Part shown: positions 1,837 through 39,980 of the stretch, in pieces
Layout: every line of letters begins with the position of its first letter
How positions within the stretch are numbered: position 1 is the stretch's first letter
Assembly (NCBI GenBank): GCA_030669415.1
Contig: DAOVDS010000001.1
Coordinates: forward strand, 1-50,590
Origin: a bacterium
GTDB taxonomy: Bacteria > Planctomycetota > SKW154 > DAOVDS01
Reading direction: 5' to 3'
Length of the DNA stretch: 50,590 nt
Notes under the pieces: model-generated
Seen by the model: only the letters and a program-made list of their open reading frames with translations
Database searches by the model: none
Told to the model about the DNA's origin: nothing
Position numbers and translations under genes: made by a program

Positions 1837-2289
1837 TTAGTCTCCTTCGCCTCCTCCGCCGGCTTTGAGCTCTTCGGACTTCTTGATTTCGGCTTCGAGC
1901 CAGGTTTTGACTGCGTCGCCCTGCATCAGCTTTGCGATGTCGGCGTCGAGGTTGCCGGGCTCAATAACAACGATCCAGCCTCCGCCGTACGGGTCTTTGT
2001 TGATGAGCGTGGAGTCGTTTTCGAGCTCCTCGTTGATCTCGACAATCTCACCGGAGACCGGGGCAACGAGCTTGCCAATCCACTTCGCGGACTGGATTTT
2101 GCCGCATACCTCGCCGGCCTCGACATCATCGCCCTCGAACGGGAGGTCAACGTAGACGATGTCGCCGCTGGTGCCCTGGAACATGTCGTTCATGCCTACC
2201 CTGGCCTTGCCATCCTCGACCTTGACCCAAGCGTGGTCAGTGTGATAGTAAAGCTCGTCCGGCATGTTGTAGCCGCCTATTTCCGCCAT
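1837..2289 (-). CDS. gcvH: Glycine-cleavage H-type lipoyl carrier protein
   Basis: YYHTDHAWVKVEDG...GKIQSAKWIGKLVAPVSGEI (lipoyl-Lys context). ATG at 2289 is preceded by GGAGGAAAGGAG. It is the last gene of the flx/hdr operon. Confidence 0.85.
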   Translation of the reverse strand: MAEIGGYNMPDELYYHTDHAWVKVEDGKARVGMNDMFQGTSGDIVYVDLPFEGDDVEAGEVCGKIQSAKWIGKLVAPVSGEIVEINEELENDSTLINKDPYGGGWIVVIEPGNLDADIAKLMQGDAVKTWLEAEIKKSEELKAGGGGEGD

Positions 2290-2346
2290 ACTTCTTCTCC
2301 TTTCCTCCAAAACGGGCTGGAATCTTAGTTCCTGCACAATGCCATG

Positions 2347-3303
2347 TCAATACTCTTTCGGCATATTCTGCAACTCGGCGAGGGTGAACACGGGTCCATC
2401 CTTGCAGACGTATTTCGAGCCTATGTTGCAGCGGCCGCACTTGCCTATGCCGCATTTCATGCGCATCTCAAGCGAGTTAACGATTCTGTCAGGGGGGAAG
2501 CCGAGCCTGGTCAGGACAGGCAGGGTGAACTTGATCATGATGGGCGGTCCGCAAACTATGGCCCACGAGTTTTCGGAACTGGGCGCGGCCGCTTCGACCA
2601 TCTGCGGCACAAACGCGGTGAAGGTGGAGACGCCTTCGGGCATCTTGGTCTCACCGGGGCTTTTGAGGTTGACGGGTACCCAGCCTTGGGCGGCAGCCTC
2701 TTCTATGGGGCCGTCGGGGCCGAACTTCCAGTCGATGCACTGGTAGAGGTTGATGTCGTCGCGCTTGGCCCACTCGGCGAGCTCGTCTCGGTAGAGGAGG
2801 AGGTTCGGGTTTCTCGCGCCGTAGACTACTTCTATGTTGGCGTAGTCGCCGCGGTGCGACGGGTCGAGCAGCCAGACGATGTAGGCGCGAAGGGTGGTGA
2901 AGGCGAAGCCGCCGCCGATAATGACGATGTTGTCGCCCTTCATTTTCTCGTAGGGGTACCAGTTGCCCATGGGCCCTCGCACGCCCATTGTGTCGCCTTC
3001 CTGCATCTGGTGGAGCTTGCGCGTCACGAGGCCCACCTTGTTGACGGTGAAACGCAGAAACCCTTTTTCCGTCGGCGAGGATGCGATGCCGATGGGTGAT
3101 TCACCCTTGCCGAGTATGGACAATTCGGCGAACTGGCCCGGCTCATACTTGAATGCTTCTTCATCTTCCTTGTCGAGGAAGACGAGGTCGAAGGTCTTGA
3201 GCATGTTGTCTTCAGTTTCGACCCTGGCCCTGTCGATTCGCACGGGATAAGGCACGTAAGGGTTGCCCGCCTTCCCGACCTGAGCTGCCGCAGTCTTTTC
3301 CAC
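2347..3303 (-). CDS. FlxA/AsrB/HydG-like FAD/NAD(P)-binding oxidoreductase with a C-terminal 2Fe-2S site
   Basis: IVIIGGGFAF dinucleotide fold and C-terminal CGIGKCGRCNIG...C (PyrK/AsrB-type cluster). Confidence 0.8.
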   Translation of the reverse strand: MEKTAAAQVGKAGNPYVPYPVRIDRARVETEDNMLKTFDLVFLDKEDEEAFKYEPGQFAELSILGKGESPIGIASSPTEKGFLRFTVNKVGLVTRKLHQMQEGDTMGVRGPMGNWYPYEKMKGDNIVIIGGGFAFTTLRAYIVWLLDPSHRGDYANIEVVYGARNPNLLLYRDELAEWAKRDDINLYQCIDWKFGPDGPIEEAAAQGWVPVNLKSPGETKMPEGVSTFTAFVPQMVEAAAPSSENSWAIVCGPPIMIKFTLPVLTRLGFPPDRIVNSLEMRMKCGIGKCGRCNIGSKYVCKDGPVFTLAELQNMPKEY

Positions 3304-3309
3304 GCTGTG

Positions 3310-4350
3310 CTACGTTCCTTCCTGAACTTTCCGGGCCTGCATGACCTTGCCCAGCACCTCTCTGATATCGATGTTGACAGGGCAGTTGGCAATGCAGCGC
3401 CCGCACCCCACGCAGGCGGTGCAGCCGAAATTCTCGACATAGTAGTTGAACTTGTGCTGCAGCCTCTGGCGCCAGCGCTGGCCCTGCTGCGAGCGGGGAT
3501 TGTGTCCGGAGCCGTGGAGGGTGAAGAGTGGGAACATGCACGAGTCCCAGTTGCGCACCCTCTGACCGCTTGATTTCACAACTTCATCCTGGATATCGAA
3601 GCAGTGGCAGGTGGGGCACAGATAGGTGCACGCGCCGCAGCCGAGGCAGGATTGAGCAATCTCGGCCCAGATGGGGTGCTCGAAGATGTCCTTGAGCTTC
3701 TCGGGCATTCCGGCAAGCTCGACCTTCGAGGAGATTCTTTTCTCAGCCTCGGCAGCGATGGATTCCTTCTGCTTGAGGCCCTCTTTGCCTGCATCGGGCA
3801 GGTCGGCAACGGCCTTTTCACCCTTGCCGGTGAGGGGCTCAAGTAGCAGCTTGTCCCCGAGGTCTGTCATAAACACGTCAGCCCCGTCGGTGCTGAACGG
3901 GCCGCAGTCCAGCGATGTACAGAAACAGGTTTGACACGGGCTATTGCAGCCGAGCGCGAAAACGGTGGATGCGTCGCGCTTGGCTTTGTAGTAGGGGTCA
4001 ACAAACTCGTCGTTATCGAAGAGCTTGTCGAGAATGGTGAAGGACTTCGCGTCGCAAGGCCTGAGGGCGAAGAGAGCGCGCGGCTTCCTGTCGAACTCGG
4101 TATCCCCGAGCTCAAAGCCGTCGCCCTTGCGCTTGTAGTCGTACATGCGCTCGGTCTGCGGGAAGAAGGCGGCCTTGGGCGTGTTGCGGGTGTTGGCGAA
4201 GTCGAATGTGACGCTCTCACCCTCGCGGGGCGCGGCAAAGAGCACCATCCCGTCGCGCTGAACGGGCGCCAGTACAAGTGCCTGCTGCGCGAGCTTTGCG
4301 AGGAATTCGCCTACTTTCGACTTGTCCAGCAGTTTTTCTCCACTCGCCAC
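3310..4350 (-). CDS. FlxB/AsrA/HydB-like iron-sulfur subunit
   Basis: Cys clusters CLGCGACTYLCPTCHCFD and CVGCGRCIANCP; position between the flxA-like and flxC-like genes. Confidence 0.7.
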   Translation of the reverse strand: MASGEKLLDKSKVGEFLAKLAQQALVLAPVQRDGMVLFAAPREGESVTFDFANTRNTPKAAFFPQTERMYDYKRKGDGFELGDTEFDRKPRALFALRPCDAKSFTILDKLFDNDEFVDPYYKAKRDASTVFALGCNSPCQTCFCTSLDCGPFSTDGADVFMTDLGDKLLLEPLTGKGEKAVADLPDAGKEGLKQKESIAAEAEKRISSKVELAGMPEKLKDIFEHPIWAEIAQSCLGCGACTYLCPTCHCFDIQDEVVKSSGQRVRNWDSCMFPLFTLHGSGHNPRSQQGQRWRQRLQHKFNYYVENFGCTACVGCGRCIANCPVNIDIREVLGKVMQARKVQEGT

Positions 4351-4392
4351 CTAACACTCCCATTGTTCAAACGCGCTGCGCTGAAACCAGCG

Positions 4393-5343
4393 TCAGATAA
4401 CCTGTTCCATCTGGTCTTCCTCGGCAAAGGTATTCAGCGGCGGCAGTTCCTCAATATCCATACCCACCTCGTGCCCGAAGCGGTCTTTGACGCTCTTTTC
4501 GAGCCTCGAGAGGAGACGCCGGATGTCTATGTTCATGGGGCACGCGCTGACGCACGCGCCGCAGTCGCTGCAGCGCCCCGCGAGATGATAACAGCGCACA
4601 ATCTGGAAAATATCGAGAGCTGTCTGCTCCTGGCCGGTCTCAATCCAGCGGGGCTGCCAGTTCTCGACGAAGCATGTCGGGCAATAGCACATGGGGCATG
4701 CCTCACGGCAGGCATAGCACCTGATGCAGCGAGAGGCTTCGTTCTCGAACTCGGCCCAGCGCTGCTGGGCTGGTTTTTTTTCGTCTTCTTCAAGCTGCGC
4801 GTAGCGAGCGGGGTTGGGCACGTCCTCAACCGGCTCGGCCGCCATCACGTCGTGGATTACGGGGTTGTGGTGCTCGCAGACAGCGCAGTTGGCGCGCAGG
4901 ATGTCTGCAATCTTGAGCTCCTCTGTGCCAGCCGGGGTTTCGACTTTGAGTGAGCCGTCGCCGACGCTGCACGAGAGAATCCTGCCGGGGTCGGGAAGGC
5001 GGGTTCTGTCAACAACGCCAACGCAGGGGACGCCGATTATGTATAGGTCATCCCTCTGTCCCTGACCTTCCTTGAGCAGTGCGACAATGGAGCGGCTGTC
5101 GCAGCCCTTGGCGCAGATACCGACTTTCTTCCCGGTGAAATCCTTGAGGTAGCGTGCGAGGTTGTTTTCCGCGAAGGGCCCCCACACCAGTTTCCCGGTA
5201 TCCTCCGGCTTTGTGACAAAGACTGGTACGTAGCGCCCGGGCAGTGTTCCCTCGCCGAAGCCTATGACCACTTCGACCCTGCCCGACTCGAGCGCATCCC
5301 TGGCCAGCTCTCTTATCTTCTTCGCTGTATCTTCGTAGGCCAC
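4393..5343 (-). CDS. FlxC-like iron-sulfur subunit
   Basis: CIRCYACREACPMCYCPTC and CSDCGACVSACP motifs; operon context. Confidence 0.65.
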   Translation of the reverse strand: MAYEDTAKKIRELARDALESGRVEVVIGFGEGTLPGRYVPVFVTKPEDTGKLVWGPFAENNLARYLKDFTGKKVGICAKGCDSRSIVALLKEGQGQRDDLYIIGVPCVGVVDRTRLPDPGRILSCSVGDGSLKVETPAGTEELKIADILRANCAVCEHHNPVIHDVMAAEPVEDVPNPARYAQLEEDEKKPAQQRWAEFENEASRCIRCYACREACPMCYCPTCFVENWQPRWIETGQEQTALDIFQIVRCYHLAGRCSDCGACVSACPMNIDIRRLLSRLEKSVKDRFGHEVGMDIEELPPLNTFAEEDQMEQVI

Positions 5344-5804: not shown

Positions 5805-6260
5805 CTATGTTGTAAGTCCTGCCGCCAAACATTTATAAGATTTCACGAGTCGGCGTGCAGGCCCCAGCGCCCTGACCTTGTCGATAGTAGCGTTGACGAT
5901 TTTGACAAATCTCTCAGCCTCGGCGGAAGAGAGCCATGCGAAATTCGCCCTGCCCTCTTCAATCCCAAGCGATTCAAGGAGGTCTTTAAGGACGACAAAC
6001 TTGCGCCGCGCCAGCAGGTTGCCCACGCTGTAGTGGCACTCGCCGGGATGGCAGCCCGCAACGACTACCCCATCGGCACCACGCTGGAGCGCGCGAAGGA
6101 TAAACATGGGGTTAACCCTGCTGGTGCAGGGCACTCTTATGATTCTCACATTGGGCGGATACTGGAACCTTGACACGCCTGCCAGGTCGGCTGCGGCGAA
6201 CCCTCACCACTGGCACAGGAAGGCGACAACCTTCGGCTCCCAATTTTTGTTCTCTTCCAT
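5805..6260 (-). CDS. mvhD: MvhD/FlxD-like 2Fe-2S protein with in-frame UGA (selenocysteine) at codon 19
   Basis: ATG 6260 (GAGAGG upstream) reads MEENKNWEPKVVAFLCQW-TGA(6204-6206)[26 protein letters not shown]...GCHPGECHY. The paralog has Cys here (FCCNWCSY). The ORF track only shows the part after the TGA. Confidence 0.8.
6176..6198 (-). promoter_or_regulatory. Weak candidate SECIS-like stem-loop downstream of the mvhD (5805-6260) UGA
   Basis: CGCC-G-CAG-CCGAC-CUG-GCA-GGCG, starting 5 nt after the UGA. An interrupted stem only. Confidence 0.25.
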
Positions 6261-6289: not shown

Positions 6290-6697
6290 CTACTCAATCG
6301 GCGCTACTTCCTCAGTTTCCAGGAAGAATTCATGGTTTTTCTCGTCAAAAATAATCAGGAACTTCTCGAAGAAGTCTTTTCTTCCAAGGATATTCATTCT
6401 GGCGGTATATTGCCTTGAGAAGCCTATATCACAGGGGAATTCCTGCTCGGCAACTGCCACGGTCAGTCTATGTACATATGCCCGAATCAGTCCCCCTACG
6501 CCTCCAAGCAAGACAGGCTCGCCCTCCTCAATTTTCAGTCCTAACGTATGGGCAACTTCCTCCCGAAATATTGAAACTGTTGCGCCGGAGTCCAACAGCG
6601 CGACATTCTGGTGCCCGCGCTTACCTGTTTTGACCTCCAGTGGAGCCAAAGGGAAGAATTTGCCCCACCTCAGAGTATAGCCGTACACTCGTTTCAT
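6290..6697 (-). CDS. Retropepsin-like (clan AA) aspartyl protease
   Basis: ALLDSGATVSIF active-site motif. About 135 aa, single-lobe size. Overlaps the upstream small gene by 4 nt. Confidence 0.7.
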   Translation of the reverse strand: MKRVYGYTLRWGKFFPLAPLEVKTGKRGHQNVALLDSGATVSIFREEVAHTLGLKIEEGEPVLLGGVGGLIRAYVHRLTVAVAEQEFPCDIGFSRQYTARMNILGRKDFFEKFLIIFDEKNHEFFLETEEVAPIE

Positions 6698-6935: not shown

Positions 6936-9900
6936 CTACAACGCTTCTATGAGCGACACTATCTGGGCGTTGGTAAAGCCTTTCATATCAATCGCGTTTG
7001 ACCGGCAGGATGCCGCGCAGATACCGCAGCCCTTGCAGAGCGCGCCGGTGACTTCAGCGTATCGGCTGGTCACGCCGCGGCGCGTCACCTCGACCACCTT
7101 CACTGCCGAGTAGGGGCAGACGCTCTCACACATGCCGCATGCGGAGCACAGTGCGGTGTTGACCTGCGAAATAGTACCCTCCGCCTTGATTTCGTCGAGC
7201 GTAAGCACGGTGCAGGCGCGCGAGACGGCCGCATTGGCCTGCACGATTGATTCCTCGACAAACTTGGGGAAATGGCACAGGCCTGCCATGAAGACGCCAT
7301 CCGTGGTGAAGTCAACGGGCCGGAGCTTCATGTGCGCCTCAAGATAGAAGCTCTCGGCGTTGGTGTCTATCTTGAGCATCTGGGCGAGTGATTTCGTATC
7401 TTCCTGCGGCACAGTGGCGACTGAGAGCACGAGGTAATCTGCAGGTATGCTGATGTCCTGGCCGATGAGCCTGTCAAGGACCCGCACGTAGGGCTTCCCA
7501 TCGCGCTCTTCGACGACGGGCGGGTTCTCCGGCTCGTAGGTGGTGAAGATGACGCCCTTTTCGCGCGCCTCTTTGTATGCCAGCTCTCTCATGCCGTAAG
7601 TGCGAATGTCGCGGTAGAGGACATAGATGTTCGCGCCGGGATTGAGCTCCTTGAGCTTGAGTGCGTTCTTGACCGCCTGCGTGCAGCAGAAGCGCGAGCA
7701 GTAAGGCCGCTCGTCGCAGCGGGAGCCGACGCATTGAATCATAACGACGTTCTTTGCCGCCGTTACGTCCTTATCACCGTCGGCGAGCCTGTTCTCGAAT
7801 TCGGACTGGGTGAGCACGCGTTCGTTTTTGCCGTAGAGGTACTCGGTGGGCTTGTATTCGAGTCCGCCGGTGCACACAATCACTACGCCGTGCTCGTACT
7901 CTTCCTCGCCCGCTGGCGTTTCGAGCAGTGTCTTGTAGTTTCCTATGTAGCCTTCGATGTTCTTTATGCTGGTGGAGGTAAAGAGCTTGAGGTTGGGCTG
8001 CGCCTTCACCTGCGCGATAGTCTCTTCAAGCAGCTTCTGCGGGTCTTCGCCCGAGAGGGTGAAGCGGATATGTCGCAGGTGTCCGCCCAGCTCTTCCTCG
8101 CGCTCGACCAGCGCGACCTCGAAGCCCTGCTGCGCGATTCCGAGCGCGGCGGTCATTCCGGCGATTCCGCCGCCAATGACGAGCGCCTTCTTGGTGAGCG
8201 GAAATGTCAGGCGCTCAAGCGGCTCAAGCAGGTAGGCCTTGTTTACGGACATGGCGATTAGCTCTTTGGCCTTCTCCGTGGCGACATCAGGGAGGGCCGC
8301 ATGAACCCAGGAGCACTGGTCGCGGATATTGGCCATCTCGAACAGGTAGCGGTTGAGCCCGCTTGCGGCGCAGGTTTCCTGGAAGAGCGGCTCGTGCGTT
8401 CTCGGCGTGCAGCTTGCCACCACGACGCGGTTGATGCCCTGCTCCTTTATGACTTCCTTCATCTTCTCCTGCGTATCCTGCGAGCAGGTGAACAGGTTGC
8501 GCTCCACGTAAGTCACGTTGGGCAGCGTTTTGGCGAACTCTTCGAGTGCTTCCATGTCGAGCACGCCGGCGATGTTGATTCCACAGTGGCAGAGAAAGAC
8601 GCCGATACGCGGGCCTTCGGCCGCGATGTCTTTCTCCTTTACGGGCTCCGGTATGGTAATTTCCTTGCCGCGCTCGCCGGCGAGATAGCGGGAGGCAAGC
8701 GCCGCGGCCCCGGAGGACTGGGTAACAGTTTCGGGTATGTCCTTTGGTCCCTGGAAGGTCCCGATTACGTACACACCGTCCCGGGTGGTTGAGAGGGGGG
8801 TGAACTCTCCCGTCTTTGCGAAGCCGAACTGGTCGAGCTCAATTGCGCAGACTTCGGCGAGTTTTGCCGCCTCGATGGGGGTTGAGAGGCCGGCCGAGAG
8901 GACGACCATCTCGTACTGGCCTGTCTTGAGCTCGCCTTCTTCAGTTTCGTACTTGATAAACAGGTTGCGGGTAGCGGGGTCTTCTTCGATGTTCGAGACG
9001 CGGGAGCGAACGAACTTCACGCCCGACTTCTCCTTGGCACGCTCGACGTACTTGTCGAAGTCCTTGCCAAAGGAGCGGAGGTCCATGTAGAAGATGGTGC
9101 AGTCGAGGCCGTGGACGTGGTCCTTGGCGATGACTGCTTCCTTGGTGGCATACATGCAGCAGGCGCTTGAGCAGTAGTCCTTCCCTACCCGGCTGTCACG
9201 CGAGCCGACGCACTGGACGAAAGCCAGGGATTTGGGCTCTTCGCCATCAGAGGGTCGCAGAATCAGCCCGCGATAGGGCCCGCCGGCAGCGAGGATGCGC
9301 TCGAACTCGAGCGCGTTGACGACGTTCGGGAAGCGCGCCCAGCCGAGTTCGGGCTTGAGCGAGCAGTCGAAGAGTTCGGAGCCTGCCGCGAGGATAACAG
9401 CCCCCACGTTGAGCTTCTCGACGCGCTCGGCCTGCTCGTAGTTTACGGCATCGGCCTTGCAGAGCTCGAAGCAGAGTCCGCAGCCGACGCACACGTCCTT
9501 GTCAATGGCGAATATCCTCGGCACCGCCTGTTCGTAATCCACGCGGATAGCGGGCCCGACACACATATCAAGGTTGAAGACGCTGAGCGCCTCGACGGGG
9601 CAGTGCTCGGCACACACGCCGCAGCCGGTGCACTTGTCAGGGTCAACGTACTGCGGCCGGTAGGCGATAGTGACTTTGAAGTTTCCCTTCTTGCCCTCTA
9701 CTTTGCGGACATCGGCGTTCATCAGGAGTTCGACGTTCGGGTGCCTTCCCGAGGCAACCAGCTTGGGCGAGATAATTCACATTGCGCAGTCGTTTGTCGG
9801 GAAGGTCTTGTCAAGCTGGCTCATCATGCCGCCGATGCAGGGCTTTCGGTCAAGCAGGTAGACCTTGAAGCCGGAATCACCGAGGTCAAGAGCCGCCTGC

Positions 9901-9968
9901 ATGCCGCCTATGCCGCCGCCGACGACGAGGACTGACCCGACCTTTCGCCCGTTACCTTTTTTCGCCAA
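6936..9968 (-). CDS. hdrA: Heterodisulfide reductase subunit A-like flavoprotein (tandem HdrA modules) with in-frame UGA (selenocysteine) at codon 64
   Basis: ORFs 9777..9968 and 6936..9722 share a frame. The join reads [11 protein letters not shown](9777-9779)[18 protein letters not shown], which is the HdrA DCxMC(I/L)xPK motif. Two GGGIxGMxAAL Rossmann motifs, two CVGSR...CC motifs and several 4Fe-4S CxxCxxCxxxCP sites. Confidence 0.9.
9740..9759 (-). promoter_or_regulatory. Candidate bacterial SECIS hairpin for hdrA
   Basis: GGU(U)GCC-UCGGGAA-GGCACC, 17 nt after the UGA. Same stem architecture and bulged U as the E. coli fdhF SECIS GGU(U)GCA-GGUC-UGCACC. Confidence 0.5.
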
Positions 9969-10000: not shown

Positions 10001-10768
10001 CTACACCAGTGCAGTATACAGCGGGCTGGTATCTCTTACTTCCTTAACATCCACGATGTTTCGCCCGCGAAGAATTGTCACCATTCGGAGTACCTCGGCC
10101 GGGTCAAGCCCCAGCTCCGGCGCCATCTCCCTGACTGAGCGGGGCTCCTTGCGCGTCAGGTTGACAATGCGAGCTTTGACGTACTCGTCCCTGACAGTTG
10201 TCTCAAGAAGCTCCTTGAAGGTCTCCTTGGGGTACTCCTCGCCGAACACGTTGGTGTCGGTTTCGAGACTGTACTGCTTGCCGACAAGCCAGCGCAGGCG
10301 TTCGCTGCAGGAGCCGTCGCGTGCTGCCCTCAGGTTTTCCTCGAGTTTTTCGCCGGTTGTCCCTTCGGAGCCCAGCGGGCCGAGTGCTCGCACAGCCTCG
10401 ATCGTCTCGGTTACCACGTCCACGAAGCGCTGGGCCTCGGCCGAGGAGCACCATTCGAGCCGGAACCGCTCAGGCGAGACGCCCGCAAGCTCCAGCAGCC
10501 GCTTTATGACAGGCTCCCGTCGAAGCGCATGGTAGTTGCCACTAACATAGTGGCAGTCGCCGAGGTGTCACCCGAGGACCATGACGGCATCGATGCCGAG
10601 GAGAAAAGCCTCGAAAACGAGCCGCGTGTCAATCCTGCCGGAGCACATGACCCGGATATCCCGGACGTTTGTTGGGTACTGGAGGCGCGAGACTCCCGCC
10701 AGGTCTGCGCTGGCATACGAGCACCAGTTGCAGCAGAACGCGAGTATCCTGGGCTCGAAATCCGCCAT
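10001..10768 (-). CDS. mvhD: MvhD-like 2Fe-2S protein with in-frame UGA (selenocysteine) at codon 67 and a roughly 130-aa C-terminal extension
   Basis: ORFs 10568..10768 and 10001..10423 share a frame. The join reads [11 protein letters not shown](10568-10570)[17 protein letters not shown], which is the conserved GCHxGDCHY motif with Sec in place of the first Cys. AGGAG lies upstream of ATG 10768. Confidence 0.85.
10537..10555 (-). promoter_or_regulatory. Candidate SECIS hairpin for mvhD (10001-10768)
   Basis: UGCCACU-AUGUU-AGUGGCA: a perfect 7-bp stem starting 12 nt after the UGA. Confidence 0.45.
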
Positions 10769-10840
10769 CAGTCACTCCTGTGAAGCCCTTGTTTGGACAG
10801 TTGGGTGCCCGGCGCTCCGGGTTCTCGTTAGAGATGCGGG

Positions 10841-10869
10841 ATGGTAGAGTCGGCCCCTGAATCTGTCAA
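10841..10869 (-). promoter_or_regulatory. Candidate promoter for the mvhD-hdrA-flx operon
   Basis: On the minus strand: TTGACA (10869-10864), 17 nt, TACCAT (10846-10841). Confidence 0.35.
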
Positions 10870-11169: not shown

Positions 11170-11691
11170 TTGAGTCCCGAAACCGCCGCTCAAGGCGAGA
11201 TTGTGGTTACGGATCTCGACCCGAACTTCAAGTACGAAGTCGCCGAGCTGCCGGGAGGCGAAAACCTGCGTTACTGCTTCACCTGCGGCACGTGTACGGC
11301 TTCCTGTCCCATTCGCGAGGTCAACGAGATATTCAACCCTCGCAAGATAATCCGCATGATTGTCCTGGGCATGAAGGAGAGGGTGCTAAAGAGTGAATTC
11401 ATGTGGCTCTGCACGGGGTGCTACTCGTGCCAGGAGCGCTGCCCGCAGGATGTGAAAATAACGGACCTGATGAACGCGCTGAAGAACTACGCGGTCAAGC
11501 ACGGGGTTGTCCACCCGGGCGTTGCCGCGCAGGCCGAGCCGATTTACAACGACGGGCGCATCTACGCAATCGAGGATTTCGACAACAAGAAGCGCGAGAA
11601 ACTGGGGCTGCCCCGCGTCAAGCCCAGGACCGAGGATGCGTCCAAGATATTCGAAGTTACGGGTCTGGACAAGATAGTCAAGAAAGGGTAA
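11170..11691 (+). CDS. hdrC: Heterodisulfide reductase subunit C
   Basis: CFTCGTCTASCP and CTGCYSCQERCP motifs; immediately followed by hdrB. Confidence 0.85.
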   Translation: MSPETAAQGEIVVTDLDPNFKYEVAELPGGENLRYCFTCGTCTASCPIREVNEIFNPRKIIRMIVLGMKERVLKSEFMWLCTGCYSCQERCPQDVKITDLMNALKNYAVKHGVVHPGVAAQAEPIYNDGRIYAIEDFDNKKREKLGLPRVKPRTEDASKIFEVTGLDKIVKKG

Positions 11692-11696
11692 CCGAG

Positions 11697-12584
11697 ATGG
11701 CTGACAACAAGTATCTGCTGTTTCTGGGATGCACAATACCCGCCAGGGCCAGGAACTACGAGCTTTCCAGCCGCGCGATAGCCGCGAAGCTCGGCATCGA
11801 GTTTGTAGAGGAGGACGAGTTCTTCTGCTGCGGCTTCCCCGTCAAGAACGCGGACTGGATGGCCTGCGCACTCATGGCTGCGCGCAACATCGCCATTGCG
11901 GAGCAGAAGGGCCTGGACATCTGCTGCCTGTGCTCAGCCTGCACGGGTGTTATGGCCGAAGTCAACGAGCACCTCAAGCACGACGAGAAGCTGCGCGAGG
12001 AAGTCAACGAGAAGCTCGCCAAAATCAACCCCAGCTACAAGGTCGAGGGCAAGCTCGCGGTCAAGCACTTCGCGCGAATCCTCTTCGAGGACGTGGGCGT
12101 CGAGAAGATAAAAGAGCTCGCCGCCAAGCCGCTCGAGATGCTCAGAATCGCACCGCACTACGGCTGCCACTACCTCAAGCCTTCGGACGTCCACAAGTGG
12201 GACAACGTCGAAGACCCTCAGACGCTCGATGAAATTATCACTGCCTGCGGCGCCGAGTCGGTCGAGTACACCGACAAGAAGTTCTGCTGCGGCGGCGCCC
12301 TGCTCGCTTACGACCAGGATACCGCCCTCGCCGTGGGAAACCACAAGCTCGAAATCGTGAAAGACGCGGGCGTGGACGCAATCACCCTCATCTGCCCCTT
12401 CTGCGCCGTAATGTACGATGACAACCAGCGCACGATAGAAGCCAAGTTCGAGAAGGAGTACAAGCTGCCCGTGCTCTACCTGCCACAGGTTATCGGCCTG
12501 TCCATGGGTATCCCGGCCAAGGAGCTCGGCATGCAGTTCAACAAGGTCAAGACCAAGGATCTCCTCGCCAAGGTCGAAGCATAA
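11697..12584 (+). CDS. hdrB: Heterodisulfide reductase subunit B (two CCG domains)
   Basis: FFCCGFP and KFCCGGALL CCG motifs. ATG 11697 lies 5 nt after the hdrC stop. The longer ORF from 11403 is an overlap artefact. Confidence 0.9.
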   Translation: MADNKYLLFLGCTIPARARNYELSSRAIAAKLGIEFVEEDEFFCCGFPVKNADWMACALMAARNIAIAEQKGLDICCLCSACTGVMAEVNEHLKHDEKLREEVNEKLAKINPSYKVEGKLAVKHFARILFEDVGVEKIKELAAKPLEMLRIAPHYGCHYLKPSDVHKWDNVEDPQTLDEIITACGAESVEYTDKKFCCGGALLAYDQDTALAVGNHKLEIVKDAGVDAITLICPFCAVMYDDNQRTIEAKFEKEYKLPVLYLPQVIGLSMGIPAKELGMQFNKVKTKDLLAKVEA

Positions 12585-12602
12585 CATCCCAATATAAAAA
12601 CA

Positions 12603-12639
12603 CGGGTCCTGGTACCACCACCGGGGCCCGCTTTATTTC
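12603..12639 (+). terminator. Rho-independent terminator candidate after hdrB
   Basis: cgggtcc...ggggcccg stem (7 bp including one G-U pair) followed by ctttatttc. Confidence 0.5.
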
Positions 12640-37265: not shown

Positions 37266-37285
37266 TGTCTCCGTGTGTTTTGGCC

Positions 37286-37313
37286 TTGACTCGCCTGCCA
37301 GGCACCGTATAAT
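37286..37313 (+). promoter_or_regulatory. Sigma70-type promoter for the nuoE-like gene
   Basis: TTGACT (37286-37291), 16 nt, TATAAT (37308-37313). AGAGAGGAGG RBS before ATG 37354. Confidence 0.6.
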
Positions 37314-37353
37314 CGCCAATCTTCCACTTCACGCAGAGAGGAGGCCCAACAAC

Positions 37354-37914
37354 ATGGCTGGCAAATCCGCCGCGCTTGCACAACCCGACCTGTCAGGCCT
37401 GGGTGGACTGCTCGACTCCCTGGCTCCGGAACCCGCAACCCCCGTGAACAGCATCCTGATACCTGTCCTTCAGGCAGTCCAGGAGCGCTACGGCTGGCTG
37501 CCTCGTGAGGCGCTGGAACGAGTGAGCCGCAGGTTCCGAATACCATTGTCACGCATTTATGGTGTAGTTACTTTCTATGCCCAGTTCTACCTCGAGCCGC
37601 GCGGGAAACACACCGTGCGGGTCTGTCGCGGGACTGCCTGCCACGTGCGGGGGGCGTCATCAGTCCTCTCGACGGTCGAGCAGGTACTCGGCGTGGCCGA
37701 CGGAGAAACCACCCCGGACCTGCTTTTTTCCATCGAGACTGTGGCATGCCTGGGAACCTGCTTCCTCGCTCCCGTAATGATGATTGACGAGAACTACTAC
37801 GGTAAGCTCGACGCCGCCAAAGTCCGAAAGGTGTTCAAGGAATACAAGAAAGGCCAACGCGCAAGGAAAGAGCCGGCGGGCAGGAAGAAATATAGTAGAA
37901 CAGTAGAACAGTAG
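37354..37914 (+). CDS. NuoE/FdsG/HoxE-like 2Fe-2S subunit
   Basis: VCRGTACHVRG...VACLGTCFLAPVMMID (four-Cys thioredoxin-like ferredoxin). The last 3 codons and the TAG stop (37903-37914) overlap the repeat element copy 2; the repeated gtagaacag-type units continue upstream. Confidence 0.85.
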   Translation: MAGKSAALAQPDLSGLGGLLDSLAPEPATPVNSILIPVLQAVQERYGWLPREALERVSRRFRIPLSRIYGVVTFYAQFYLEPRGKHTVRVCRGTACHVRGASSVLSTVEQVLGVADGETTPDLLFSIETVACLGTCFLAPVMMIDENYYGKLDAAKVRKVFKEYKKGQRARKEPAGRKKYSRTVEQ

Positions 37915-37977
37915 AGCAGTGAAAATCTTCTCACAACCATCTACTGCTCTACTTACTTGAAAATCGGAGATTTTCAC
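37903..37977 (+). ncRNA. Copy 2 of the 75-nt structured intergenic element
   Basis: Two substitutions relative to copy 1, both in the loop of the 10-bp hairpin. Followed by GTG 37978 and a 6-codon uORF ending in a GTGA overlap with the 37995 start. Confidence 0.6.
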
Positions 37978-37994
37978 GTGGGGGCGCACACAAA

Positions 37995-39353
37995 GTGAGA
38001 AGGATTCCGTCACACAAAGAACTTGAAGCTCTTCAGAAAGAACTCCAGGATAAACACGACCCGGACAGGACAAGGATTCTCGTGTGTCACACCGGCTGCA
38101 AGGCCATGGGCGCGGACCAGTTGCTGGCAGCTTTCAAGGAAGGAGTCGCCTCAGCCGGACTCCAGGAGGAAGTCGAGGTTGTTGAGACAGGCTGCCACGG
38201 ATGTTGCGCCGGTGCGCCCGTTATAGCCATCGAGCCGCAAGGCATCGTCTACCACAGCGTACAACCTGAGAACGTGGCGGAAGTTATCGAGAAGACCATA
38301 AAGAACGGCGAGTGCGTGGACTCCCTCGCCGCCGAGTCCGTGGACGACAAGCCCGTCTTCAAGCGTGAAGAGATTCCCTTCTACCGGCAGCAGCAGAAAA
38401 TCGTCCTGCGCAACTGCGGCAGGATTGACCCCACCAACTGGGAGCATTACCTCGCGCGTGACGGCTACAGCGCGCTCGCCAAGGCACTTGCCGGCCTTAC
38501 GCCCAAACAGGTCATTGACGAGGTGCTCCAGTCCGGCCTGCGAGGCCGCGGAGGCGCAGGCTTCCCCACGGGCAGAAAATGGCAGTTCGCGCGCAATGCG
38601 AAGGGCTCGCCCAAGTACATAATCTGCAACGCGGACGAAGGTGACCCCGGCGCATTCATGGACCGGAGCATCCTCGAAGGCGACCCGCACTCCGTCATTG
38701 AGGGAATGATAATAGGCGCCTTCGCAATCGGCGCGCAGAAAGGCTTCATCTACGTGCGGGCCGAGTACCCGATTGCAGTCAGGCACGCTCACAAGGCGCT
38801 CGACCAGGCACGCGCGCTCGGAATGCTCGGAGAGAACATCCTCGGCAGCAGTTTCGATTTCGAGATAGAGGTGCGCGAGGGCGCAGGCGCGTTCGTCTGC
38901 GGCGAAGAGACAGCCCTTATCGGCTCCATTGAAGGCAAGCGCGGCAAGGGTAAGTTCCATGCGCTCAAATACACCGAGTCCGCCGAGCTGCCTGACAAGG
39001 ACTACCCAATGCTGCTTACCACAGGCAGGCTGCTCTACCATTTCCACACAGGCACCATGACCCGAAGGGTCGAGTCACTCGAAGCCATCTCCCCCGAGCC
39101 GTTTGTAGAAGTCAACGCCGAGGATGCGAAAAAGCTCGGCATAGCCGATGGCGAGCTAATTCAGCTCCGCTCCCGCAGAGGTCAGACACAGGCAAAGGCG
39201 CTTATAGGCTCAATGGTGGACCGCGGCATCCTCTTCATGCCTTTCCACTTCAAGGAAGCCGCTGTCAACCTGCTGACAAATGACGCGCTTGACCCGGTTG
39301 CGAAAATCCCCGAGTTCAAAGTCTGCGCAGTCGCCATTGAGAAGGTGTCCTAA
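37995..39353 (+). CDS. Chimeric ORF: NuoF/FdsB-like N-terminus (aa 1 to about 317) fused in frame to the C-terminal molybdopterin-dinucleotide-binding domain of a formate dehydrogenase alpha subunit
   Basis: RGRGGAGFPTGRKW, CNADEGDPGAF and GAGAFVCGEETALIGSIEGKRG are followed directly by KDYPMLLTTGRLLYHFHTGTMTRR...FMPFHFKEAAVNLLTNDALDPVAKIPEFKVCAV. The NuoF 4Fe-4S domain and almost all of FdhA are missing. Likely a deletion remnant. Confidence 0.75.
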   Translation: MRRIPSHKELEALQKELQDKHDPDRTRILVCHTGCKAMGADQLLAAFKEGVASAGLQEEVEVVETGCHGCCAGAPVIAIEPQGIVYHSVQPENVAEVIEKTIKNGECVDSLAAESVDDKPVFKREEIPFYRQQQKIVLRNCGRIDPTNWEHYLARDGYSALAKALAGLTPKQVIDEVLQSGLRGRGGAGFPTGRKWQFARNAKGSPKYIICNADEGDPGAFMDRSILEGDPHSVIEGMIIGAFAIGAQKGFIYVRAEYPIAVRHAHKALDQARALGMLGENILGSSFDFEIEVREGAGAFVCGEETALIGSIEGKRGKGKFHALKYTESAELPDKDYPMLLTTGRLLYHFHTGTMTRRVESLEAISPEPFVEVNAEDAKKLGIADGELIQLRSRRGQTQAKALIGSMVDRGILFMPFHFKEAAVNLLTNDALDPVAKIPEFKVCAVAIEKVS

Positions 39354-39980
39354 GTGGACCTCGTCATACTCGCAGGCGGCAGAAGCCGCAGGATGGGAAG
39401 CGCAAAAGCGCTTCTTGATTTCAACCGGACAAGTCTCATCGAAACCGTTATCGCCCGTATCCGCCACCTCTTCGACAATGTGATTATTGCATGCGCTGCA
39501 GGCAACAGCTTCCCCCATATTGACGCAACTGAAGTGAAAGATATCTATCCCGACTCAGGCTCGCTCGGCGGGCTGCACGCCGGGCTCTCGGCCGCTAACT
39601 CCGACAGAATCTTTGCACTCGCATGCGACATGCCGTTTGTCAACCCTCAGCTCGTCAGCATGCTTATTGGGCGCAGTTCCGATTGTGATGCAGTTGTGCC
39701 AAGAACGGCGGCGGAAAGCGCCCATAACGACAAGCCCGGCACAATGTATTTCGAACCCCTGCACGCCGTCTATTCAAAAACGTGCCTGCCACACATGGAG
39801 CAGCTTCTCGGAAGCGGCAACCTGAAAATTCTGGATTTTTTCGACAGGGTGAATGTGGACTTCGTAGACACCGGCGAGATACAGGCCGTTGATTCCCAAA
39901 TGCTGTCCTTCTTCAATATCAACACACCTGAAGATTTCGAGCGCGCAAAAGAACTGCTGGCGAAAGAGCGCGGCGGATGA
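39354..39980 (+). CDS. mobA: Molybdenum cofactor guanylyltransferase
   Basis: VILAGGRSRRMG motif. GTG start abuts the upstream stop. Confidence 0.85.
   Translation: MDLVILAGGRSRRMGSAKALLDFNRTSLIETVIARIRHLFDNVIIACAAGNSFPHIDATEVKDIYPDSGSLGGLHAGLSAANSDRIFALACDMPFVNPQLVSMLIGRSSDCDAVVPRTAAESAHNDKPGTMYFEPLHAVYSKTCLPHMEQLLGSGNLKILDFFDRVNVDFVDTGEIQAVDSQMLSFFNINTPEDFERAKELLAKERGG

Follow-up and report, generated by a model that had tools for sequence, protein, structure and literature searches.

In methanogens, MvhD and VhuD are the [2Fe-2S] subunits that link the Mvh or Vhu hydrogenase, Fdh or Elp to HdrA. An NADH dehydrogenase/heterodisulfide reductase of Desulfovibrio, FlxABCD-HdrABC, was reportedly described by Ramos et al. 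in 2015. Bacterial SECIS elements, such as those of E. coli fdhF and fdnG, are stem-loops bound by SelB that lie immediately 3' of the UGA, with an apical loop 16-37 nt from the UGA and a G in the loop.

MvhD/VhuD is listed among the selenoprotein families of prokaryotes, with at most two selenocysteine (Sec) residues (PMC13188914), and Desulfobacterium autotrophicum possesses four Sec-mvhD genes (PMC2702500). A longer form of the subunit is BamF, an MvhD adaptor of the class II benzoyl-CoA reductase of Geobacter metallireducens, which exceeds the usual length by more than 100 aa and carries a winged helix-turn-helix (wHTH) that contacts BamI (bioRxiv 10.64898/2026.04.10.717634). According to the same preprint, BamF connects the HydBC-like module BamGHI with BamE (a fused dimer of HdrA), is a selenoprotein with Sec19 at the CxxU position, and consists of 'two Rossmann-fold domains plus wHTH'. 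Our literature search found no link between MvhD and a winged helix beyond this April 2026 preprint.

Here we describe mvhD-L, a gene for a long-form MvhD with an in-frame UGA, within a 50,590-nt stretch of DNA that was analysed as a whole (the window). The window encodes the alpha and beta subunits of an F-type ATP synthase, which identifies the organism as a bacterium; it comes from marine sediment, and the best named matches of its AtpD, only about 76% identical, are spread over mixed phyla. We estimate at about 75% the probability that mvhD-L specifies a Sec-containing MvhD relay in which a hairpin downstream of the UGA serves as SECIS and the C-terminal tail as a protein-docking adaptor. 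As MvhD/VhuD is already listed as a selenoprotein family, the occurrence of Sec in such a protein is not new as a phenomenon.

Gene structure and genomic context

An earlier note, made from the sequence alone, had proposed that ORFs 10568..10768 and 10001..10423 share a frame, that the TGA at 10568-10570 is their only interruption and that the merged protein has 255 aa. Translation agrees on all three counts: the minus-strand frame 10768..10001 comprises 255 codons and contains a single internal stop, TGA 10570..10568 at codon 67, with the next start candidate 3' of it (GTG 10423) a further 48 codons on. This frame is one gene for one protein, not two genes. Gene callers split mvhD-L into fragments of 66 aa and 140-170 aa, as they do the genes of relatives deposited in public assemblies, and merging such fragments gives back a complete Fe-S subunit.

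Two other accounts of the TGA were considered and rejected. Assembly error was ruled out because the TGA and the hairpin recur, with zero variants, in contigs of four independent metagenome runs from marine sediment. Reinitiation at GTG 10423 was ruled out because codons 68-115 are conserved in frame and contain no start codon.

Reading across the stop, PF02662 (FlpD/MvhD) matches aa 8-130 with 167.5 bits (cutoff 22.3; E 1.5e-49), and the NCBIfam VhuD model scores 126.6 bits, under its 215-bit 'exception' cutoff. MvhD chains of the PDB align without gaps over aa 1-136 (E 1e-44 to 1e-46), and in this sequence alignment the numbering of mvhD-L is that of M. marburgensis MvhD. Residues C13, C16, C42, U/C67 and C72, together with H68 and D71, are invariant in the domain. 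The product thus resembles MvhD/VhuD of known structure (5ODC_D, 8RVU_F, 7BKB_F, 9SW2_D) in its five invariant Cys positions, in H68 and D71, and in the adjoining hdrA. It differs in being about 120 aa longer, with a linker and winged helix found in no solved MvhD, in being bacterial with no adjacent MvhAG hydrogenase gene, unlike methanogen MvhD, and in the placement of Sec at the G-U-H position, whereas a review names the CxxU position for MvhD.

The features of the locus are collected in Table 1. The operon runs in the order mvhD-L, hdrA, a small aspartyl-protease-like ORF, the short mvhD (mvhD-S), FlxC-, FlxB- and FlxA-like genes and a GcvH-like gene. Beginning 32 nt downstream of mvhD-L, an adjacency also seen in relatives, hdrA encodes a protein with two GxGxxG FAD motifs that is collinear with the HdrA genes of about 1000 aa beside long MvhD in those relatives. 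That an anaerobic bacterium combines an MvhD-type subunit with genes for HdrABC and for FlxABC-like proteins recalls flx-hdr of Desulfovibrio. However, the FlxD equivalent of the window is the short MvhD at 5805..6260, while mvhD-L is an additional long paralog absent from classical flx-hdr.

Table 1. Features of the mvhD-L locus, in coordinates of the window.
Feature	Position	Strand	Remarks
mvhD-L, long-form MvhD, 255 codons	10001..10768	-	ATG 10768, TAG 10003..10001, one UGA read through
AGGAG ribosome-binding site	10775..10779	-	6 nt 5' of the mvhD-L ATG; read from sequence
Sigma-70-like promoter match TTGACA-17-TACCAT	10841..10869	-	divergent intergenic region shared with hdrCB; consensus match only
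MvhD/FlpD [2Fe-2S] alpha/beta domain, aa 8-130	10379..10747	-	Pfam and invariant residues
UGA codon 67, very likely read as selenocysteine	10568..10570	-	aligns with invariant Cys67 of G-C-H-x-G-D-C-H-Y
SECIS-like hairpin, stem-loop 10555..10537 in a 29-nt block	10530..10558	-	overlaps codons D71-Y79
Helical linker, aa ~133-195	10184..10372	-	conserved ERLRWLVGK and NVFGE; no structural match
Winged helix-turn-helix, aa ~196-255	10004..10183	-	end of long helix, H212-219, H223-235, beta-wing 239-253
Double-length HdrA, 1010 aa, two FAD-binding halves	6936..9968	-	Sec at codon 64, TGA 9779..9777
Second, short MvhD, FlxD-like, 151 aa	5805..6260	-	Sec19 in CxxU, TGA 6206..6204
FlxC-, FlxB- and FlxA-like Fe-S / NAD(P)-binding subunits	2347..5343	-	same operon; candidate electron-input module
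hdrC	11170..11691	+	divergent from mvhD-L
hdrB, CCG domains	11688..12584	+	divergent from mvhD-L

Among informative genome loci, about 34 of 37 place the long MvhD directly 3' of a double HdrA and follow it with a second redox module. This module is a double HdrA with a short MvhD (21 loci), a set of BamGHI-like genes, or an HdrL/GltD-like protein. Unlike most relatives, the clade of the window, to which locus L003 also belongs, has no upstream HdrA.

Probable decoding of UGA-67 as selenocysteine

The earlier reading of the UGA as Sec within GCHxGDCHY is very likely correct, to judge from comparison with homologs. Codon 67 falls in a column that is invariantly Cys in 116 full-length homologs; in the alignment of 117 sequences that includes the window, the columns of C13, C42, C67 and C72, and of the extra C16, are invariant apart from the U of the window at 67. 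The three closest relatives (L001-L003; 75-82% identity) have TGA at the same codon with the protein conserved on both sides, and they too are split by gene callers. Within codons 68-115, where no start codon occurs, orthologs differ by 16-20 synonymous versus 1-8 non-synonymous changes. Since change between the TGA and the next start is mostly synonymous, the stretch is translated, under purifying selection, in the mvhD-L frame.

The same codon recurs well outside this clade. A scan of one genome per species yielded G-TGA-H at codon 67 in 15 further genes from 14-15 species genomes, with carriers such as Desulforudis sp., Desulfogranum marinum DSM 2058, Desulfopila sp., a Desulfococcaceae bacterium, the Olavius Delta4 symbiont and a Dehalococcoidia MAG. 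The pattern G-TGA-CAY..GGNGAYTGYCAYTAY is present in 15 species-genome genes and, by a DNA-pattern scan, in at least 120 metagenome contigs; the 121 metagenome matches listed comprise 96 short-form genes, 17 long-form genes and eight cut by contig ends. Across phyla, TGA-67 gives way in homologs to Cys only, and within the window three genes of one operon contain a UGA at a known Sec position. Within the window we found no selA, selB, selC or selD gene and, with ARAGORN, no tRNA or tRNA-Sec, so that we infer Sec decoding rather than demonstrate it.

The hairpin downstream of the UGA

A hairpin, UGCCACU-AUGUU-AGUGGCA, occupies 10555..10537 and begins 12 nt 3' of the UGA. Its perfect 7-bp stem had been noticed earlier at this position and distance, and ViennaRNA lengthens it by one A-U pair to an 8-bp stem closed by a 3-nt loop, UGCCACUA-UGU-UAGUGGCA, whose apical UGU lies about 21 nt past the UGA. 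In its location inside the coding sequence, in the distances of stem and loop from the UGA, and in the G of its loop (UGU here, UGGAA in the other type described below), the element resembles the bacterial SECIS of fdhF and fdnG. It differs from the fdhF element in being a short perfect helix with no bulged U, and from both in lacking a match to a curated RNA family: at gathering thresholds, Rfam returned no match anywhere in the window. The hairpin is a candidate SelB site.

Across the window, perfect Watson-Crick stems within +10..+45 of a position attain at least 8 bp at 0.43% of positions and at least 7 bp at 1.1%. Among MvhD genes, a perfect stem of at least 7 bp in this interval is present in 19/19 TGA genes (the window, three close relatives and 15 genome genes) versus 9/85 Cys genes, and the two groups differ in stem length (Mann-Whitney, p = 4e-10) and in folding energy (p = 4e-9). 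The stem is also found in nearly all of the 121 metagenome TGA matches listed. Two hairpin types occupy the same location: the UGCCACUA-UGU-UAGUGGCA type is shared by the window clade and Desulforudis, while most other TGA genes have CAUUACC(U)-loop-(A)GGUAAUG, in which a compensatory change between ACCU/AGGU and ACCA/UGGU is seen. Codon choice follows the pairing, TGA alleles using almost exclusively CAT-TAC...GGT-AAT or CAC-TAT...GGC-AAC whereas Cys alleles use these codons freely.

A further indication comes from the four close orthologs, in which only 28.5% of third positions are invariant. Their longest nucleotide-invariant stretch is a run of 29 nt (10558..10530; the runner-up is 11 nt), which covers exactly the hairpin. 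Such an invariant block amid variable third positions is the signature of an RNA element within codons D71-Y79. That the hairpin behaves like a bacterial SECIS, being present in all TGA genes and mostly absent from Cys alleles, is supported by these sequence comparisons. Pairing of CAYUAY with GGYAAY right after G-UGA-CAY offers a simple diagnostic of Sec at MvhD codon 67.

Other explanations of the UGA and of the hairpin should be weighed against this reading. Were the UGA a genuine stop, the locus would hold a pseudogene or two genes, the one encoding a 66-aa N-terminal fragment and the other a 140-aa protein from GTG 10423. This is how gene callers treat the window gene and its relatives, and stand-alone tail ORFs of about 100-130 aa do exist in databases. 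Such a split would, however, halve the MvhD fold and forfeit C72 along with the conserved codons 68-115; it would also have to accommodate a TGA kept across phyla and exchanged only for Cys, as well as two more operon genes with TGA at known Sec positions, and we find it scarcely credible. The hairpin might alternatively be a by-product of the peptide C-H-Y-x-x-G-N, whose H-Y codons are by nature complementary in part to its G-N codons, or an element of ribosome pausing or mRNA stability, in which case another feature would have to account for reading through the UGA. Consistent with this, folding of the 66-nt segment reaches a z-score of only -1.45, no Rfam family is matched, and some of the Cys genes with stems of at least 7 bp are archaeal, archaea having no in-frame SECIS. 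Against this, all 19 TGA alleles compared have the stem and only about 11% of Cys alleles do; the skew towards CAT, TAC, GGT and AAT is strong only in TGA alleles, pairing is maintained at one distance from the UGA by two alternative stems with compensatory changes, and the 29-nt block is invariant. We therefore regard a hairpin unrelated to Sec decoding as very unlikely, and retain the reading of UGA-67 as a very likely Sec codon with its SECIS.

Predicted selenium sites at the electron-entry junction

Of the five invariant Cys positions of MvhD (13, 16, 42, 67 and 72), Cys16 is regarded as an 'additional' non-ligand Cys (PMC13580544), so that residue 67 is inferred by elimination to be one of the four [2Fe-2S] ligands. 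The neighbouring His68 and Asp71 adjoin an unknown ligand held by Cys202 and Cys205 of HdrA (PMC13580544). U64 of the window HdrA aligns with Cys205 of M. marburgensis HdrA and with the X (Sec) of 9sfi_A, the M. maripaludis HdrA, whose Sec is Sec197 (PMC13518236). U19 of the short MvhD, in turn, is the equivalent of MvhD Cys16 and occupies the same position as Sec19 of BamF. By these alignments the operon has all three of its predicted Sec residues at the [2Fe-2S]-to-flavin junction, the mechanism of which is described as unresolved (PMC13518236; PMC13580544; bioRxiv 10.64898/2026.04.10.717634). Three Sec residues around it would be a pointer to where selenium or thiol chemistry matters.

Fold and distribution of the C-terminal tail

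Beyond the Pfam domain mvhD-L continues for about 120-125 aa (aa ~133-255), close to the roughly 130 aa that the earlier note had counted outside the MvhD fold. The same note had taken this tail for a winged-helix-type module foreign to canonical MvhD (130-140 aa), and structure prediction concurs. Pfam winged-HTH matches are sub-threshold only (MarR, HVO_A0114 and the DprA winged helix). AF2 models residues 126-255 of the window with confidence (pLDDT 87.4) as three short helices, a long helix, an HTH and a beta-hairpin wing, that is, a helical linker followed by a winged helix. For the full length we modelled the closest full-length Cys homolog (P0002), which gave one compact body (pLDDT 90.9, pTM 0.89). 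Foldseek relates the core to 5ODH_D, 8RVU_F and 7BKB_F over about 130 aa (TM 0.86-0.91 relative to target) and the last ~60 aa to the winged helices of ArsR/SmtB, HlyU and Zalpha (rmsd 1.1-1.8 A, with weak E values of 8.5e-3 or above). Neither a PDB sequence search nor Foldseek found a solved structure covering the tail, and the linker matched nothing.

The architecture is widespread. Thousands of database proteins of 250-262 aa cover 98-100% of the mvhD-L query at 45-53% identity, and bear only the names 'hydrogenase iron-sulfur subunit' or 'F420-reducing hydrogenase delta subunit/predicted transcriptional regulator'. In species genomes, long MvhD occurs in archaea (Promethearchaeota, Heimdallarchaeota, Bathyarchaeia, Thermoplasmata, Methanomassiliicoccus and Methanophagales) as well as in bacteria (Dehalococcoidia, Desulfobacterota and Syntrophorhabdus). 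With the tail by itself as query, 1.8 billion representatives yielded 168 proteins, and in these, tail-only ORFs aside, the module never occurs apart from MvhD. It is placed at the C-terminus of proteins of 243-262 aa and also occurs in fusions, namely HdrA-MvhD-tail (810 aa), ferredoxin-MvhD-tail and MvhD-tail-GltD-like. Some of the tail-only ORFs of about 100-130 aa may be fragments of Sec-split genes. To judge from these searches, the tail defines a very large and common 'long MvhD' family of about 255 aa and is not an oddity of mvhD-L. The suggestion that the tail might prove to be a separate gene in relatives thus holds at the margin only: the two parts are fused in the great majority and separate, or fused otherwise, in some, as at one Thermoplasmata locus (L021) where the tail has a frame of its own behind a short MvhD.

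Relation to BamF

Our comparison with BamF draws on synteny-defined BamF-like proteins of two MAGs, L035 and L036. In L035 (Dehalococcoidales), genes for an AOR, a small ORF, a CCG protein, a 1033-aa HdrA and a 255-aa MvhD are followed by those for NuoE-like, NuoF-like and then 2Fe-2S/4Fe-4S proteins, which is the gene order of bamBCDEFGHI; L036 has the EFGHI part in common with it. Identity between the tails of mvhD-L and of the BamF-like proteins is low, and a profile is needed to detect the relationship: tblastn with the single mvhD-L tail did not reach BamF-like proteins, whereas a tail profile of the window family scores 36-45 bits over positions 3-113/126 on L035, L036, L040 and L052. 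As this match extends over nearly the full tail, it marks the mvhD-L tail as a BamF-type adaptor module. Among the matches listed, homologs of the L035 BamF-like protein at 75% identity or more are confined to the Dehalococcoidia.

Like BamF, mvhD-L is extended by more than 100 aa, the last part of which is a winged HTH, is predicted to be a selenoprotein and has a fused-dimer HdrA as its partner. Several differences should be kept in mind. The predicted Sec of mvhD-L is residue 67, with Cys at position 16/19, whereas that of BamF is Sec19; mvhD-L precedes the double HdrA while the BamF gene follows it; and the preprint describes two Rossmann-fold domains in BamF, whereas AF2 places a helical linker before the wHTH in the tail of mvhD-L. 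Unlike the bam cluster, the window has neither BamB (the tungsten AOR) nor the HydBC-like BamGHI. With FlxABC-like, GcvH-like and HdrBC genes in their stead, we do not file the operon as a class II benzoyl-CoA reductase. The tail indicates that an architecture so far known for one aromatic-degrading enzyme is common outside aromatic degradation, in bacteria and archaea of sediments.

A winged helix may invite the view that the tail binds DNA and that mvhD-L, instead of or besides being an adaptor, is a redox-sensing regulator of the divergent hdrCB and mvhD-hdrA promoters, in which a [2Fe-2S] sensor would be joined to an ArsR-like wHTH. The ArsR/SmtB, HlyU and NolR repressors are its nearest folds, the weak Pfam matches are to winged helices of MarR, HVO_A0114 and DprA, JGI calls relatives a 'predicted transcriptional regulator', and the gene adjoins a divergent promoter region of 400 bp with sigma-70-like matches on both strands. 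On the other hand, the homologous tail of BamF is a protein-protein interface, and the module is found only joined to MvhD, sometimes inside large redox polypeptides, in a placement between redox genes that archaea and bacteria share irrespective of promoter context. No ArsR-type dimerisation helices were matched, the net charge of the wHTH as counted from sequence is only about +2, and the full-length homolog model forms a single compact body. A DNA-binding role is in our view unlikely, and a protein-docking adaptor is the preferred reading of the tail.

Proposed role of mvhD-L

On the comparative evidence, UGA-67 is very likely decoded as Sec under the direction of the downstream hairpin, a probable SECIS that is encoded within codons C72-N78 through constrained synonymous codon choice. 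Sec67 would then serve in place of one of the four MvhD residues that ligate the [2Fe-2S] cluster. The MvhD core may dock on the double HdrA and pass electrons towards the bifurcating FAD, while the tail, by homology and by the one structural precedent, would dock a protein rather than DNA. As in the contact of BamF with BamI, the tail could tether the [2Fe-2S] relay and a BamE-like double HdrA to a second redox module. Likely partners in the window are the double HdrA, HdrBC, the short MvhD and the FlxABC-like NAD(P)H module, the last of these, together with the short MvhD, being the obvious candidate for the tethered module.

More tentatively, and with the odds in our estimation against the full picture, long MvhD might mark widespread HdrA-based bifurcating supercomplexes in which the tail couples two redox modules and, in the lineage of the window, all three Sec residues line the junction, Sec67 as a cluster ligand. 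If so, the mvhD-L operon would lend itself naturally to testing the thiol/selenol relay step of HdrA-type bifurcation. The usual gene order around long MvhD is double HdrA, long MvhD, second double HdrA, short MvhD and Flx or HdrBC, an arrangement found in Asgard archaea, Bathyarchaeia, Thermoplasmata, Dehalococcoidia and Desulfobacterota.

Predicted selenoprotein genes of the operon

The operon that carries the long mvhD also encodes a double-length HdrA and a second, short MvhD (Table). A TGA stands in frame at codon 64 of hdrA (9779..9777, minus strand), followed about 20 nt 3' by a hairpin (about 9759..9739, minus strand). This codon aligns with the Sec of Methanococcus maripaludis HdrA (9sfi_A), and its counterpart in M. 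marburgensis HdrA is Cys205. In the short mvhD, TGA 6206..6204 (minus strand) predicts Sec19 within a classical CxxU motif (LCQW-U). The short mvhD would thus bring to three the selenoprotein genes within this single operon, together with hdrA and the long mvhD. In class II benzoyl-CoA reductase, BamE is likewise a double-length HdrA, and Sec19 of the MvhD adaptor BamF occupies the same position as that of the short MvhD. Several Desulfobacterales have predicted Sec in both MvhD genes, at positions which differ between the two.

Within the long mvhD, G>A population variants (plus strand) were noted at window positions 10583 and 10478, each in single runs. The former is synonymous (codon 62), and both leave the TGA and hairpin of this gene untouched. 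Stems of 10-12 bp persist at the SECIS position, just 3' of the codon corresponding to UGA, in a few MvhD genes which encode Cys, some of them archaeal. Such stems may be relics, left either by the conversion of Sec to Cys or by transfer between users and non-users of Sec.

Coordinates of features in the window and in comparison loci (L-numbers) from relatives
Feature	Location	Strand	Description
hdrA	window 6936..9968	-	1010 aa; two FAD-binding halves
135-aa ORF	window 6290..6697	-	weak retropepsin-like aspartyl-protease match; between hdrA and short mvhD
Short mvhD	window 5805..6260	-	second mvhD; FlxD-like; 151 aa
Short mvhD hairpin	window, about 6188..6166	-	
GcvH-like gene	window 1837..2337	-	glycine-cleavage H / lipoyl-carrier; last in operon
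GcvH-like gene	L013 1232..1633		immediately upstream of hdrCB
GcvH-like gene	L028 1220..1609		
Cys-encoding mvhD	L006 8912..9295		10-12-bp stem
Cys-encoding mvhD	L059 1221..1610		10-12-bp stem
Cys-encoding mvhD	L005 185..937		10-12-bp stem

Gene order and neighbouring genes

In loci L004, L006, L008, L010, L012, L016-L018, L020, L021, L025 and L027-L031, a double HdrA is followed by the long MvhD, a further double HdrA and the short MvhD, an order kept across Asgard archaea, Bathyarchaeia, Dehalococcoidia and Desulfobacterota. Such conservation implies a putative, uncharacterised complex with two HdrA. As hdrA and the short mvhD are nearly adjacent in relatives, the 135-aa ORF which separates them here looks, from this comparison, like an insertion. 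Lipoate-binding proteins accompany sulfur-oxidising Hdr-like systems and, by analogy, the GcvH-like protein might serve as a dithiol/disulfide substrate of HdrBC.

In L021, a single Thermoplasmata MAG, the tail module is encoded on its own (12288..12617), 48 nt after a short MvhD (11851..12240) and in a different frame from it. The two may be split naturally, or a frameshift may have parted them.

Elsewhere in the window (37273..39980, plus strand), a NuoE-like ORF precedes a 452-aa ORF and a MobA-like gene. The NuoF-like (Complex1_51K) N-terminal part of the 452-aa ORF changes abruptly to the molybdopterin-dinucleotide-binding domain found at the C-terminus of a formate-dehydrogenase-type protein, which suggests that the ORF is what remains of a deletion and fusion, or else a chimera created in assembly.
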